Source of the DNA: Opitutia bacterium | Lineage (GTDB): Bacteria; Verrucomicrobiota; Verrucomicrobiia; Opitutales; T3Sed10-336 | Assembly (NCBI GenBank): GCA_050506795.1 | Contig: JBJHCF010000048.1 | Span: 1-36,088 of the forward strand | Reading direction: 5' to 3' | DNA length: 36,088 nucleotides | Shown here: piece after piece, positions 26,487-36,088 of the stretch | How the letters are laid out: each line of letters opens with the position of its first letter | Position numbering within the stretch: the stretch's first letter is position 1 | Position numbers and translations under genes: made by a program | The notes under the pieces: generated by a model | Told to the model about the DNA's origin: nothing | What the model saw: the letters and a program-made list of their open reading frames with translations, nothing else | Database searches by the model: none

Positions 26487-26581
26487 TCACACGGAGTCAC
26501 GCCCTCGACGGGCTCAGGCCGGTGAGAGCTCACGGAGGTTGGTCCGGCTGATTTCTCCGTGTCTCCGTGCCTCCGTGTGAG
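26487..26581. repeat. Dispersed inverted-repeat element (CACRRAG x3 arms) with a nested 25-bp insert in the left arm
   Basis: tcacacggagtcac[gccctcgacgggctcaggccggtga]gagctcacggag ... ctccgtgtctccgtgcctccgtgtga. Confidence 0.8.
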
Positions 26582-26691
26582 TCCAATCCCGAATGGCAAT
26601 CCATGATCCCAGTGATATCAAATATTCTTGCCGCCGCAGTTCGCCTTGGGGTTCGGTTTTATCGCCGGATGCGGGCGAAGTCGGGGCGAAT

Positions 26692-31857: not shown

Positions 31858-32025
31858 ATCTCACACGGAGGCACACCTTCGACGAGCTCAGGCCGGGAAG
31901 AGACACGGAGGAAAGGCATGAGGGGACCCGCGGACGAGCGAGGGTACTGGGAGACCTTGTCCACTTCGTCCTTCTCACGCTTTATTTCCGAAAATCTCCG
32001 TGGGCTCCGTGGCTCCGTGTGAGAT
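31858..32025. repeat. Dispersed inverted-repeat element (CACRRAG x3 arms) with a nested 25-bp insert in the left arm
   Basis: atctcacacggaggcac[accttcgacgagctcaggccgggaa]gagacacggag ... ctccgtgggctccgtggctccgtgtgagat. Confidence 0.8.
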
Positions 32026-32108: not shown

Positions 32109-34307
32109 ATGAGGCAAAGTGTGAAAAAAGAATCCGGGGCGGATGGCTCCGGCTGGATGGCTTTCGCCTGGGAGGAGAAGGAATTTCCAGGAGCTACGAG
32201 TCATGGTGGACCGGATACAACCGAGGGCGAAGCCGATGTTCCGAAACCGCGCCGGACAACGACCGGTGTTTCTGGCGAGAAAATCCGAGGCGAATCTTTC
32301 CTGCGACGGATTGACGGTTGGTTCGGACGTTTCGACGGGGTTTTGGATCGCTCGATCCCGGAGAGCCTGAATCCGTTGGCGCGTACCGGTGCCATTGCCA
32401 ACACTACTTTTCTGATCGCCGCCTTCACCGGCGTTTTTCTTTTGTTCTGGTATTCGCCCAGTGTGCATTACGCTTACGATTCTCTCGAGGCGCTGCGTAC
32501 GGATTCACCATTGGGACAACTCATGCGTTCGTTGCACCGGTACAGTTCGGACGCCTGTATGCTTTTTGTGGTGCTGCACATCGTGCGGGTGCTGGTGGCC
32601 CGCAAGTTCACCGGGGCGAGATCATTGGCCTGGATCACCGGGGTGTTTATTCTGGGGGTCTTGATGGTGATCGGGTGGAGCGGATACTGGCTGGTGTGGG
32701 ATGAACGGGCGCAACAGGTGGCCCTGGGCGTCGCTAAAATGTTCGACGTGCTGCCGGTCTTTTCCGAACCCCTGACCCGGTCCTTCCTGGTGGCTGAGAA
32801 GGTGCCTTCGCTTTTCTTCTTTCTGGTTTTCTTCGTTCACATGCTGCTGCCGCTGGCGATCGCGGTCATGTTGTGGCTGCACCTGAGCCGGGTCAGTCGT
32901 CCCAAACTCTTCACCAGCCTGCCGCTGACGGCGTGGATCCTGGGCACGTTAGTGGTGCTTTCGCTGGCGCTCCCCGCCGAGAGCGCCGGTCGCGCGGACT
33001 TGTCGGTGCAACCGGAGGGATTTGGCATGGACTGGTGGTACCTCTGGCCGCTGGTGTTGACCGATCGCCTCGGGGGTGGAGCCTTGTGGGGGTTGCTCTT
33101 TGTGGGAACGCTGGCGTTTTGCGCGGTGCCGGCTTTGATGCGAAAGAAGACGACGGCGTTGGCGGCGGCGCGGGTCGACACGAATGCCTGCCAGGGCTGC
33201 ACCCTGTGCTCGAAGGATTGTCCGTTTGACGCCATTCGGATGGTGGCCAGGGACAGGGACGGGAAAGGTCCGAAGTGGCAAGCGCTGGTGGATGCGGACA
33301 AATGTGTTTCCTGTGGGATTTGCACGGGGGCGTGCGATTCGGACGCCATCGCGATGCCGGGATTCGAGGCGCTGACGGAGAAGCAGGCGGTGAGCGAATG
33401 GGTCCGAGCGCGGAAAGAAAAAGGGGAGGAAGCGTTCCTTGCCTATGTTTGCGGCGAGTCGACTGACAACCTGGCCATCAATGGAGTGACGGGGCGGTCA
33501 CCGGCGTTGCCCGGCTACCGTGTGCGTTCCGTGCCTTGTGCCGGTTGGGTGAGCGCTCCGCTGCTCGAGCATGCGTTGCAGGAAGGAGCCTCCGGAGTTC
33601 TGATACTGGGATGCCGTTCGGGCGAGGCGCGTTATCGTGAGGGTGCGGACTGGCTGGAGGCGCGTCTGGACGGCAAACGGAAGCCGATACTGCGTCCCCG
33701 ACTCGCCGAGCGCCAGCGGGTGCGGTTTCTCCGCATGACGCCCGCGTCCAGGGACGAGGTGGCCGCGGCGGCGACCTCGTTTCGCCGGGAACAGTCGCTG
33801 GCGACATCCCCACGCAAAGGCCGTCTGGCGGCGTGGGCGGTGGGAATCTTGCTGGCAGCGGCCTTCGCGCTGGCCACCTGGGCTGGGAGCGAAGCGCCGT
33901 ATGTGGCGCCGGATGGGTCGCCCGAGTTGATCGTCTCGTTTCGTCATTCCGGCGAACTTCTGGAAGAAGAACGTCGGCTCACCGAAGAAGAACTGGAGCG
34001 CCTGCCACCGCACATGCGCACGGAGTTCGTGTCCAGCGGAGAAAGGGTCCCGGTCCGGTTGCGGGTGTATCTGGACGGGGAGCTACTGGTGGAACAGGAG
34101 TACCGTCCTCGCGGCTTGCGTCGCGACGGCCCCAGCACCGCCATGGAGCGCATCGAACTGCCCGAGGGCACCCATACATTGCGGGTGCTTATCAACGACA
34201 CCACCAACCCCGGCGCCTGGCCGCACGAATGGAACGGCGAAGTCGAAGTCGACGCCCGCGATCGCCGCGTCCTGCTCTTCGGAAGCGACGGGTTTGCGTT
34301 GTATTAG
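32109..34307 (+). CDS. Fusion of cytochrome b, 2x[4Fe-4S] ferredoxin, MvhD/FlpD-like domain and a TM-anchored C-terminal domain
   Basis: SLHRY...VLH and FVHM...WLH heme b His pairs, SGYWLVWD, MDWWY (PEWY-like); CQGCTLCSKDCP and CVSCGICTGAC; AYVC, VPCAGWV, LILGCRSGEARY. Confidence 0.85.
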   Translation: MRQSVKKESGADGSGWMAFAWEEKEFPGATSHGGPDTTEGEADVPKPRRTTTGVSGEKIRGESFLRRIDGWFGRFDGVLDRSIPESLNPLARTGAIANTTFLIAAFTGVFLLFWYSPSVHYAYDSLEALRTDSPLGQLMRSLHRYSSDACMLFVVLHIVRVLVARKFTGARSLAWITGVFILGVLMVIGWSGYWLVWDERAQQVALGVAKMFDVLPVFSEPLTRSFLVAEKVPSLFFFLVFFVHMLLPLAIAVMLWLHLSRVSRPKLFTSLPLTAWILGTLVVLSLALPAESAGRADLSVQPEGFGMDWWYLWPLVLTDRLGGGALWGLLFVGTLAFCAVPALMRKKTTALAAARVDTNACQGCTLCSKDCPFDAIRMVARDRDGKGPKWQALVDADKCVSCGICTGACDSDAIAMPGFEALTEKQAVSEWVRARKEKGEEAFLAYVCGESTDNLAINGVTGRSPALPGYRVRSVPCAGWVSAPLLEHALQEGASGVLILGCRSGEARYREGADWLEARLDGKRKPILRPRLAERQRVRFLRMTPASRDEVAAAATSFRREQSLATSPRKGRLAAWAVGILLAAAFALATWAGSEAPYVAPDGSPELIVSFRHSGELLEEERRLTEEELERLPPHMRTEFVSSGERVPVRLRVYLDGELLVEQEYRPRGLRRDGPSTAMERIELPEGTHTLRVLINDTTNPGAWPHEWNGEVEVDARDRRVLLFGSDGFALY

Positions 34308-34410
34308 GCTCTTGTCGTGGGGTACGGTTTGTCGAAAAGGAGGGCAATAACCGCAACTGTAATTCATCTGCGGATCTGGCGAAAATACTAACCGATGTCT
34401 TTGTTGTTCC

Positions 34411-36088
34411 CACACGGAGTCACGGAGACACAAAGGGGTTGAGTGAAAAAAAGTAAAACGGAACGCCTCGTGATACGGCAAGTGTCATTCTATGGTCCAG
34501 CTTTTCAGCAAAGAGCTCCGTTATCCACCTTCACCCGGATCCCACAGTTCTTCCCTTTGTGTCTTTGTGGCTCTGTGTGAGAAAATGATTTGTTTCGAGT
34601 TTTCGTGCGGCATGGGTAGTTTGTTGTGTGGTTCGGGCTGAGAGGTCTGAATAAAAGGCATGGGTCTCACACGGAGCCACAAAGACACAAAGGGGGGCGA
34701 AATGGAATGACTCGTCTTACGGCGATTGATTTTTGAATGCCTCAGCTTTCCGCAAACGCGCCCGTTCATTCGCCTTCATTCTGTACCAAGGTTCTTCCTT
34801 TGTGTCTTCGTGGCTCTGTGTGAGAAAATGATTTGTTTCGAGTTTTCGTGCGGCATGGGTAGTTTGTTGTTGGGTTCGGGCTGAGAGGTCTGAATAAAAG
34901 GCATGGGTCTCACACGGAGCCACAAAGACACGGAGGGGGGGCGAAATGGAATGACTCGTCTTACGGCGATTGATTTTTGAATGCCTCAGCTTTCCGCGAA
35001 CGTTCCCGTTTATTTGCCTTCATTCGGTACCCAAGGTTCTTCCCTTTGTGTCTTCGTGTCTCCGTGTGAGAAAATGAATTGTTTCGAGTTTTCGTGAGGC
35101 ATGGGTAGTTTGTTGTTGGGTTCGGGCTGAGAGGTCTGAATAAAAGGCATGGGTCTCACACGGAGCCACAAAGACACAAAGGGGTTGAGTGGAGAAAGCA
35201 AAATGGAACGACTCGTGAGACGGTAAGTTTTTTATAATCGAATTCGTCCGCAATCACTCCCGGCTCCCAAGGTTCTTCCCTTTGTGGCTTCGTGTCTCCG
35301 TGTGAGAAAATGATTTGTTCTTAAGGCTTCAGACGGAAGCGTTTGAGTGGAAGGCGTGGGCTCCGTGTGAGTTGTTCTGAGTCCTTGTTCATTGGGATTT
35401 TTCGTCTTCCTCGAGCGTACCATCGATTACGCGTCGGATTCCGTCTTTCATCATGGCGGCGCCGAAGTTGAGCAAATACCCGAGTTTCAATCCACGAAGA
35501 CGTAGGTAAGTCAGGAGTTGTTTCTTGTGAACGGGAAGGGTGTTTTCGACCGATTTTAGTTCGAGGATTACTTTATCGGCTAAAATGATATCCGCCCGAA
35601 AGCCCTCATCGAAGTGTATGCCGTCGTATTGGATGGGAACGGGTACCTGGCGGGCGACGGAGAAACCCCGTTTTTCCAGTTCTCGCGCGAGCACAACTTC
35701 GTACACCGTCTCCAGTAGGCCGGGTCCGAGATTTCGATGAATTTGGATGGCCGCGTCGACCACTTGTTTACCGATTTTATTTTCGTGAGGCATGGGTAGT
35801 TTGGTTTGGGTTCAGGATGATGGGTCTGAATCAAAGGCAATGGGTCTCACACGGAGCCACAAAGACACGGAGGGGGGAGTTAATTGGAATGACTCGTCTT
35901 AAGGCGATTGTTTTGCCTGCCCCGTTTTTTTCGCAAGCACTCCCGCTCCTTCGTCTTCACGCGGATCCGACAGTTCTTCCTTTGTGTCTTTGTGGCTCCG
36001 TGTGAGAAAATGATTTGTTTCGAGTTTTCGTGTGGGATGGGTAGTTTGTAGTTGGGTTCGGACTGAGGTCTGAATGGAATGCAATGGG
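34411..36088. repeat. Tandem array (period about 245 bp) of inverted-repeat-bounded units; runs off the window end
   Basis: Arm tctcacacggagccacaaagacac(aa/gg)aggg at about 34411, 34665, 34908, 35154, 35845; reverse-complement arm at about 34553, 34797, 35042, 35278, 35979; conserved ~82-bp linker and variable 94-115-bp spacers. Confidence 0.92.
35389..35793 (-). CDS. GxxExxY protein (PD-(D/E)XK nuclease-like fold)
   Basis: LGPGLLETVYE, FRADII, ILELKSV, QLLTYL, GYLLNFG. Confidence 0.93.
   Translation of the reverse strand: MPHENKIGKQVVDAAIQIHRNLGPGLLETVYEVVLARELEKRGFSVARQVPVPIQYDGIHFDEGFRADIILADKVILELKSVENTLPVHKKQLLTYLRLRGLKLGYLLNFGAAMMKDGIRRVIDGTLEEDEKSQ

Follow-up and report, generated by a model that had tools for sequence, protein, structure and literature searches.

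GxxExxY genes boxed by inverted repeat arrays: an apparently undescribed, possibly selfish class of gene cassette in many phyla

The end of a 36,088-nucleotide stretch of DNA from an Opitutia bacterium (contig JBJHCF010000048.1 of assembly GCA_050506795.1, positions 1 to 36,088; hereafter the window) carries a gene of the GxxExxY family enclosed between 30-nt inverted arms, within a row of tandem units of about 244 bp (34407-36088). The array is real, and boxed genes of the same family recur elsewhere in this genome and in other genomes, as members of a widespread, apparently undescribed class of gene cassette found in many phyla; no description of this packaging of gene and arms was found in the literature searched. 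We propose that the cassette is a selfish, promoterless hairpin element, that its arms are cis-acting sites on which the encoded nuclease acts, and that the array in the window arose through deletion followed by amplification. Taken as a whole, this reading seems to us to stand an even chance of being correct. In what follows, contigs of the assembly carry C numbers (the window is C48), surveyed loci L numbers, and the two congeneric genomes are G001 and G002.

Boxed GxxExxY genes in one genome and across phyla

The earlier note on this DNA, which was made from the sequence alone, had recognised a GxxExxY gene inside a 597-bp unit, and profile searches agree with it: the 134-aa product matches PF13366 (PDDEXK_3; E 6.5e-41, 139.8 bits against a cut-off of 22) and TIGR04256 (GxxExxY; E 3.8e-41, 140.1 bits against a cut-off of 35), and no Pfam family besides PF13366 at E <= 0.001. 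The GxxExxY motif is present together with the PD-(D/E)XK catalytic residues D68, E78 and K80. Among 66 sequences G25, E28, Y31, D68, K80, N109 and F110 are invariant, and E78, H89 and Q92 are conserved at 90% or more. The AlphaFold model (predicted local distance difference test score 92.3, predicted template modelling score 0.86) adopts a restriction-endonuclease-like fold, matched best in the VIA comparison by 3ijm (Z 8.3, root-mean-square deviation 3.3 over 100 residues), then by BpuSI (Z 8.0), the Cas4 protein SSO0001 (Z 7.5; Foldseek E 9.7e-4) and Hjc resolvases (Z 5.2-5.8). On this model the GxxExxY protein is a predicted PD-(D/E)XK nuclease fold. A search of the PDB by sequence returned no solved relative, the top match being an alanine racemase at E 0.25. 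The available part of a survey of PD-(D/E)XK families (PMC3424549) gives the function of PF13366 as 'Unknown', and the available text of another paper (PMC8934634) merely names the GxxExxY domain, beside a reverse transcriptase. The literature searched yielded neither a function for the family nor a paper dedicated to it, which agrees with its description as uncharacterised in the earlier note.

Each arm is built of three 8-nt CAC(R)(R)AG units. We designate as R the arm reading TCTCACACGGAG... and as L its complement. The 24-nt arm core is found at 59 sites with at most three mismatches in the 4.9-Mb genome, against none for the reversed pattern, so the arm repeats are not a product of chance. 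A profile search extends this to 147 matches in 78 loci, 51 of which are convergent R-loop-L pairs without a gene, with loops of 13-20 or about 53 nt. The arms are not confined to this cassette: they are a subfamily of a dispersed repeat. Six GxxExxY genes, 28-69% identical to the window gene, are present in the genome, and only one of them has arms of the window type. Five of the six paralogs lie between inverted arms of their own, about 30 nt long, which differ in sequence and share one build of three tandem 8-10-nt units containing CAC...AG. The paralog on C61 stands between two complete hairpins, as does the gene in the window.

The 51 dispersed hairpins, which are convergent and of CACGGAG type, include two in the window itself (26487-26585 and 31859-32025) and 49 at further loci of the genome. 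Alignment of 45 copies places them inside a larger stereotyped element with conserved flanks, whose outer inverted repeats read ...CACTCGGTTAAGGC... and ...GCCTTAACCGAGTG...

The same architecture is common at GxxExxY genes of other genomes. With a nine-sequence alignment as the query, 80 loci were collected from many phyla, and 74 were testable after removal of six too near a contig end; the family is large, and in one scan of it 595 of 599 candidate stretches were confirmed as GxxExxY/PDDEXK_3. Each locus was given the score of its best flanking inverted repeat, sought up to 250 nt away on each side; the controls (n=274) were pseudo-genes placed in these loci at a shift of 1000 or 1500 nt. 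Scores of at least 14 were reached at 55 of the 74 loci against one control, and scores of at least 18 at 40 loci against none. The proposal of the earlier note would have been refuted had GxxExxY genes and flanking arms shown no co-variation across genomes; it passes this test, as GxxExxY genes elsewhere do have cognate arms, and arm identity rises with protein identity as described below. The arms of foreign loci share one build, in which (C)TCAC precedes three units (for example CGCAAAGG, CACGGAGG or CGCAGAGA), and the period of the units is 8 nt in 47 of the 55 loci, 9 nt in seven and 10 nt in one. The general cassette is accordingly a gene of about 125 amino acids boxed by inverted arms of about 27-30 nt, with the unit consensus YRC-R-R-AG and the (C)TCAC end. 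Its distribution is patchy, with 1-12 copies in 61 of 121 genomes of the phylum, and proteins 60-72% identical occur in several phyla.

Two layouts exist. Among 54 loci with arms and open reading frame (ORF) bounds (L098 was dropped because it had no bounds), 44 are R-gene-L, with the purine-rich arm upstream, and 10 are L-gene-R, L089 being borderline. The cassettes are very compact: measured from the start codon, the end of the upstream arm lies at -2 to +8 nt in 20 of the 44 R-gene-L loci, and measured from the stop codon, the start of the downstream arm lies at -8 to +11 nt, likewise in 20 of the 44; many ORF calls extend into an arm. The gene in the window belongs to the minority layout, standing between two hairpins (L-gene-R) and not in the loop of one (R-gene-L).

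Comparison of the arms between loci shows them to be under selection at the level of their sequence. Across 903 pairs drawn from 43 loci, four-fold degenerate sites are 0.28-0.29 identical and hence saturated; arm identity in the same 903 pairs is 0.61, 0.64, 0.73 and 0.89 in successively higher bands of protein identity, against 0.29 for shuffled arms.

Structure and probable origin of the array

The array alternates R and L arms, with a B-type spacer between each R arm and the next L arm and an A segment between each L arm and the next R arm (Table 1). The earlier note had described inverted arms of about 30 bp bounding one full and several short units, and these lie where it had placed them, with 25 to 29 of 30 positions complementary. 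Its account of the short units also holds: they are 141-142 nt long and equal the full unit minus a 460-bp block (35320-35779), in whose place they have TCGAG. What they keep, read on the minus strand, is the 51-nt leader, the start and first codons and 12 nt beside the other arm; the start codon is ATG in three of them and ATC in the last. The leader and start, TTTTCGTG(N)GGCATGGGTAG on the plus strand, recur with 90-100% identity at 34600, 34843, 35089, 35780 and 36025. In two respects the earlier description has to be extended. The spacers of about 100 nt between the units are repeated as well, at 78-100% likeness within the row, and so the arm-bounded segments of about 142 bp are parts of a true repeat of 243-246 bp. 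The array is also longer than had been delimited, beginning with a lone arm at 34407 and running across the contig end into C38 as far as about position 560; counted in units, it amounts to about six gene-less ones and one full one.

The last 127 nt of C48 are identical to the first 127 nt of C38, and the part of the array on C38 consists of two short units and a closing L arm (C38:527-556). The join between the two contigs is supported by the congener G001, in which both genes flanking the array lie on one contig (flanks 87% identical). As assembled, the row (R-B-L-A-R-B-L-A and so on) contains seven hairpins of the form R-B-L and six A segments, and the gene lies in one of these segments. 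The position of the row is between convergent genes: a cytochrome b/ferredoxin/FlpD fusion on the plus strand and, on C38, minus-strand genes for a cupredoxin and a CtaB-like protein. The fusion (32109-34307) encodes 732 amino acids, in which a cytochrome b N-terminal domain is combined with 4Fe-4S ferredoxin motifs and an FlpD (methyl-viologen-reducing hydrogenase delta) domain.

A row of this kind might be suspected of being a mis-assembled collapse or expansion of dispersed repeats. The contig end does fall inside the array, and unitigs built from one DNA run (the one run containing the stretch, and probably the source sample) break at every arm, with one contig joining 34583 to 35833. Against this, the variant units and the spacers each stand at about single-copy depth in the unitigs, and the full unit is contiguous over 660 nt, 35194-35853 being recovered in a single piece at a depth of 17 against 13.7 in the flank. 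Moreover, the two flanks are adjacent in the congener, and similar rows exist in unrelated assemblies. We regard an artefact as extremely improbable.

Whole L-A-R units are found elsewhere in the genome on C25 (two and a half units), on C62 and at 6.7 kb on C38; all of them keep the 82-nt A segment, the 'coding' remnant of which has drifted. B spacers occur outside the array only at C38:6752 and C62:14292. The spacers B2, B3 and B5 of the window have in common a small, conserved stem-loop with a T-run after it (TCGTCTTACGGCGA TTGATTTTTG) and, close to the 3' end, a degenerate arm of L type.

Arms without a gene stand alone as well as in rows of alternating orientation, and gene-less units and deletion derivatives are not peculiar to this genome. 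Empty units elsewhere and a polymorphism between full and empty forms had both been named in the earlier note as things to look for, and both exist. At least one gene-less arm pair is present at 19 of 79 foreign loci, and at least four arms within 1.6 kb at 17 of the 79. At L025, in a Verrucomicrobia metagenome-assembled genome (MAG), tandem short units, at least four of them, stand before and after a full R-gene-L unit; between the same arms they have kept 10 nt from the beginning of the coding sequence (CDS) and ~45 nt from its end, and their spacer is 41 nt long. At L082 the last 115-140 nt of the CDS are present in five units, which follow one another at a period of about 234 nt, and L030, L031 and L063 have single fragments of the CDS end. 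CDS remnants were flagged at 13 loci in all, eight of the flags being arm sequence overrun by ORF calls. The polymorphism is seen at the site of the C7 cassette, full in the present genome and deleted at the orthologous site in G001, where 272 nt are lost and the junction runs from the arm unit CACAAAG to an intragenic CACGAAG. Because such derivatives recur and cassettes persist across species, the cassettes are long-lived residents that decay by internal deletion and keep their arms.

At the window site G001 has about 1.95 kb of unrelated ORFs and no array, and hence no clean empty site was found there; only one flank of the C61 locus is syntenic with the congeners, and for the C12 and C25 loci no synteny was found in these genomes, of which G001 is 67% and G002 92% complete. 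A further form of array was observed at L028:2920-3400, in a Roseiflexus MAG, where a GxxExxY gene has beside it six tandem minimal hairpins with loops of 8 nt and spacers of 12 nt.

We infer the following origin for the array from the sequences of its units. One cassette would have lost its interior and been reduced to its arms, the 51-nt leader, the first codons and, from the 3' flank, 12 nt. Unequal recombination or replication slippage between the repeated arms would then have multiplied a 244-bp unit of arm, A segment, arm and spacer in tandem, and copies of the unit would also have reached C25, C62 and the second site on C38. The spacers, being repeated along with the units, point to tandem amplification as the source of the row and speak against separate insertions. 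The pattern of internal deletion and tandem rows is replicated in two unrelated genomes, at L025 and L082.

Table 1. Coordinates of the array elements in the window, and of boxed PF05635 genes elsewhere
Feature	Position	Strand	Remarks
Lone R-type arm (TTCCCACACGGAGTCACGGAGACACAAAGGG), opens the array	34407..34437	+	repeat analysis
Spacer B1, B-type segment between R arm and next L arm	34438..34552		
Gene-less unit 1	34553..34694	-	ATG 34613; L arm 34553-34582, 82-nt A segment, R arm 34665-34694 (29/30 complementary); A segment on the minus strand: 12 nt of 3' flank, TCGAG, first codons, leader
Spacer B2	34695..34796		
Gene-less unit 2	34797..34937	-	ATG 34856; arms 34796-34825 and 34908-34937 (25/30 complementary)
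Spacer B3	34938..35041		
Gene-less unit 3	35042..35183	-	ATG 35102; arms 35042-35071 and 35154-35183 (28/30 complementary)
Spacer B4	35184..35277		96% identical to C38:6752-6831
Full unit, 597 nt	35278..35874	-	L arm 35278-35307, gene, leader, R arm 35845-35874 (arms 25/30 complementary)
Degenerate arm-like stretch (GGCGTGGGCTCCGTGTGAG), just 3' of the stop codon	35352..35370	+	sequence read by eye
GxxExxY gene, 134 aa	35389..35793	-	ATG 35793
51-nt leader, R arm to start codon	35794..35844	-	common to all gene-less units and to the C25 and C62 copies
Spacer B5	35875..35978		81% identical to C62:14292-14393
Gene-less unit 5, cut by the contig end	35979..36088	-	ATC start; continues onto C38 (unit 6 there too); arm 35979-36007 and its partner on C38 28/30 complementary
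Boxed genes of PF05635 (23S rRNA intervening-sequence protein), examples	C2:156778-157241, C12:78043-78609, C21:17044-17696, C25:56962-57471, C27:20436-20883		loci L120-L149

Possible roles of the arms and the nuclease

What could be the role of the arms? We hypothesize that they are the cis-acting sites of a selfish element, pairing as a hairpin or cruciform, and that the encoded nuclease would most likely recognise or cut its own arms or gene-less arm pairs, whereupon repair would copy the cassette in. The spread of the element would then be similar to homing or gene conversion, after which the gene would decay and the arms persist. Homing endonuclease genes pass through such a cycle of invasion, decay and loss, and they resemble the cassettes in being small free-standing nuclease genes of patchy distribution, with decayed or deleted copies at orthologous sites and with possible targets, in our case the gene-less arm pairs, in the same genome. 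Unlike them, the cassettes have no intron or intein context, their flanking homology extends over only about 30 nt, and cleavage is here putative.

The earlier note had offered, as one of two interpretations, that the full and empty units are an autonomous element and its dependants, in the manner of miniature inverted-repeat transposable elements (MITEs), propagated by the GxxExxY protein. The derivation of the short units by deletion fits the sequence. Like MITEs beside an autonomous parent, the short units keep both ends, with their terminal inverted repeats, differ from the full unit by one internal block and have copies at several loci. The second half of the proposal, propagation by the protein, found no support, and the row itself is a product of tandem amplification. 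Further differences from MITEs are that the amplified unit includes a spacer, that no target-site duplication was seen and that the protein is not a known transposase.

Several observations weigh against the proposal of arms as cis-acting sites of a mobile, nuclease-driven cassette. The repetition of the spacers means that tandem amplification alone is needed to explain the row. No target-site duplications were seen beside 48 arm pairs, as far as the ends of a mobile unit can be placed; the units in the window abut repeated spacers. The cassette on C10 has a counterpart at the orthologous site in G002 (77% identity), as has that on C7 in G001, and the paralogs within the genome are only 28-69% identical, so there is no sign of recent movement. 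Clear arms are missing at 19 of the 74 foreign loci and at the C56 paralog. Plain co-inheritance would likewise make the arms more alike as the proteins become more alike. The fold matches are generic, the best having a Z of 8.3 and the best Foldseek match an E of 9.7e-4. Finally, genes of PF05635, which do not encode nucleases, are boxed in a like manner, and the arms therefore need not be nuclease targets.

This last family deserves closer consideration. PF05635 comprises the 23S rRNA intervening-sequence proteins, which are four-helix bundles; seven such genes are present in the genome, and five of them are boxed by inverted arrays of 6-8-nt units (Table 1). The units of these arms are highly variable, examples being GGAGTCA, ATGGCGG, GGGGCGA, AAGGATG and GTTAAAAG. 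For other genomes of the phylum 29 PF05635 loci were examined, the locus L131 of the present genome being left out and two others lying too near a contig end; of the 27 testable loci 15 score at least 14, against none of 51 controls, and the period is mostly 7. Since genes that do not encode nucleases are boxed in this way, the boxed architecture itself requires no nuclease. Heptamer arrays were also observed apart from boxed genes. Gene-less inverted pairs of ATTTTGG heptamers, with 71-109 nt between the arms, are located at C23:66527-66675, C25:48666-48825, C31:29495-29661 and C58:8381-8517, and at C1:71916-72209 a long array of GATAGRC heptamers faces a single inverted copy, with a PF05635 match (C1:72395-72709) lying about 190 nt away.

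The PF05635 cassettes lend weight to what we regard as the main rival, a role of the arms at the level of RNA similar to that of the intervening sequences (IVSs) of 23S rRNA. Here the arms would pair in the transcript as a stem of about 28-30 bp around the ORF and RNase III would cut it, releasing or controlling the cassette mRNA with the host transcript left undisturbed; the nuclease would be a cargo, its role unrelated to the arms. The IVS of Coxiella is described, in the available part of its source, as a selfish element of 428-444 nt with a 28-bp stem of terminal inverted repeats, a loop holding an S23p ORF of about 120 amino acids, and cleavage by RNase III (Warrier et al. 2016, PMC4990558). 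As far as that text goes, the dimensions agree: an element of about 430-600 nt, terminal inverted repeats forming a stem of about 28-30 bp, and an ORF of about 120-130 amino acids in the loop. The distribution is likewise sporadic with horizontal transfer, and the mode of movement, according to the same portion of the source, is not established. In the full unit of the window 25 of 30 arm positions are paired, and the minimum free energy (MFE) and centroid folds both form the terminal stem. The cassettes are promoterless and compact (a sigma-70 promoter scan of the array gave no sites, and terminator-like sites number four against 2.7 expected), and the purine-rich arm, with its GGAG and AAAG units, ends at the start codon. 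PF05635 genes of the S23p family are boxed outside rRNA, here and across the phylum. A further parallel is offered by TAACTGA intergenic heptamers, direct repeats upstream of start codons (MacGregor 2015, PMC4679880), which the available part of that paper describes as two to six tandem units of 7-8 nt in distant phyla, ending at or just before the start codon and with no assigned role; heptamer repeats ending 1 nt before start codons in other bacteria are proposed there as post-transcriptional signals. They differ, on the same account, in being direct repeats without a complementary downstream arm and in not being tied to one gene family.

Several features of the cassettes are, however, not those of an element acting through an RNA stem. 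Over 1354 arm positions the mismatches compatible with G-U pairing show no strand bias, with 26 compatible in the sense strand, 29 in the antisense strand and 41 other mismatches. Conservation of the arms extends from their pairing to the sequence itself, more than a pure stem would need; arm pairs without a gene, and rows of them, are common; and both layouts exist, at 44 and 10 loci respectively. Unlike a 23S rRNA IVS, the cassette in the window lies between protein genes and not in an rRNA gene (no rRNA match was found in 34200-36088), its cargo is of nuclease fold, its arms are arrays of short tandem units, and its gene-less units stand in rows. We consider the explanation at the RNA level unlikely, albeit one to be taken seriously.

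Another explanation would make the gene a passenger in a host repeat of the repetitive extragenic palindromic (REP) type, kept by host factors or moved by a Y1 transposase, with the row arising through satellite-like duplication. In REP systems with a REP-associated tyrosine transposase (RAYT), also called REPtrons, the flanked gene encodes a Y1 (HUH) tyrosine transposase, and each REP is itself a short imperfect palindrome with a conserved 5' tetranucleotide, the GTAG head. The cassettes resemble these systems, and the REP doublets known as bacterial interspersed mosaic elements (BIMEs) or REPINs, in several ways: inverted copies of one repeat stand on both sides of a single gene and are also scattered away from it as doublets that form hairpins, the repeats in a cluster alternate in orientation, every gene lineage goes with a repeat type of its own, and the repeats are extragenic. 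A passenger role would moreover suit the occurrence of the arms at 78 loci with one GxxExxY gene of this arm type, the position of the array between convergent genes, which is frequent for REP clusters, the repetition of the spacers together with the units, and the presence in the genome of 16 Y1_Tnp matches and of classical REP-flanked RAYT genes.

A chance passenger nevertheless cannot explain the layout, because the association of gene and arms holds across phyla and paralogs, at 55 of 74 loci in many phyla with the same 8-nt build and at five of the six paralogs here. None of the 16 Y1_Tnp matches lies on C48 or at a site matching the arms, except for a truncated ORF on C62. The cassette gene encodes a protein of about 125 amino acids with a PD-(D/E)XK fold and not a Y1 HUH transposase; the arms are three direct 8-nt units that must pair with a partner arm, with no GTAG-headed palindrome, and are thus not self-palindromic as REPs are; and there are several diverged cassettes per genome, spread over many phyla. 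In our judgement the passenger explanation is improbable.

The truncated ORF on C62 (C62:14584-14979, or L018:1584-1979 on the minus strand) has 131 codons' worth of Y1 transposase-like protein with an HYHLVLET motif and lies about 160 nt from a cluster of window-type arms; it adds to the case for a host repeat. As a mobiliser of the arms, Y1 transposase was rejected, since this truncated neighbour is the only one and the other 15 matches are off the list of arm matches. The best Y1_Tnp match of the genome (E 1.2e-29, C36:49869-50467) forms a classical REP/RAYT pair: the palindrome GCCCGGCGTTTTAACGCCGGG stands on either side of it and recurs as doublets without a gene (the REP/RAYT loci listed are C36:49869-50467, C16:12615-12920 and C23:24426-24593).

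We also considered a system akin to type III toxin-antitoxin loci, in which the arrayed units would give small structured RNAs that bind and restrain the GxxExxY nuclease. A small gene of nuclease fold does stand beside many copies of a structured repeat, and each unit can fold as a long hairpin, the fold having been computed for the full unit. Most cassettes elsewhere, however, have two arms and no array, at least four arms being found at only 17 of 79 loci; the repeats are inverted on both sides of the gene and do not form a direct array upstream of it; and no Rfam family matches 34200-36088, where at E up to 1 only a plant microRNA model was returned, with 20.7 bits against a gathering score of 135. 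Such a system appears very improbable to us.

Two better-known kinds of array were rejected. The attC sites of integrons have GTTRRRY and RYYYAAC cores, and neither arm has GTT or AAC cores of the attC type; the 12 matches to PF00589 in the genome include none on C48 or C38. An array of clustered regularly interspaced short palindromic repeats (CRISPR) has one-way direct repeats and unique spacers, whereas the arms of the window alternate in orientation and the spacers are 78-100% alike.

Returning to the proposal of arms as cis-acting sites of a selfish element, we may extend it tentatively to both boxed families. The GxxExxY cassettes and the S23p/PF05635 cassettes, including the ORF-bearing IVSs of 23S rRNA, could be the two branches of a single superfamily, as yet undescribed, of minimal mobile elements that end in inverted arrays of 7-8-nt repeats. 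The PD-(D/E)XK protein of about 125 amino acids would then be a new element-encoded enzyme that recognises the arms, or the hairpin or cruciform formed by them, and drives copying into gene-less arm pairs, and the gene-less units would be its MITE-like dependants. We put this forward as a conjecture somewhat on the unlikely side.

Significance

The array in the window lays out a clear path of decay, from the full unit through a deletion derivative to a tandem row, and it does so in a cassette of the minority layout. For the GxxExxY family as a whole, the conserved arms built of short repeats provide the first concrete candidate for a substrate. They also connect the family with two existing puzzles, namely how ORF-bearing intervening sequences of rRNA move, and what makes and maintains extragenic palindromic repeats outside the RAYT-bearing Proteobacteria.

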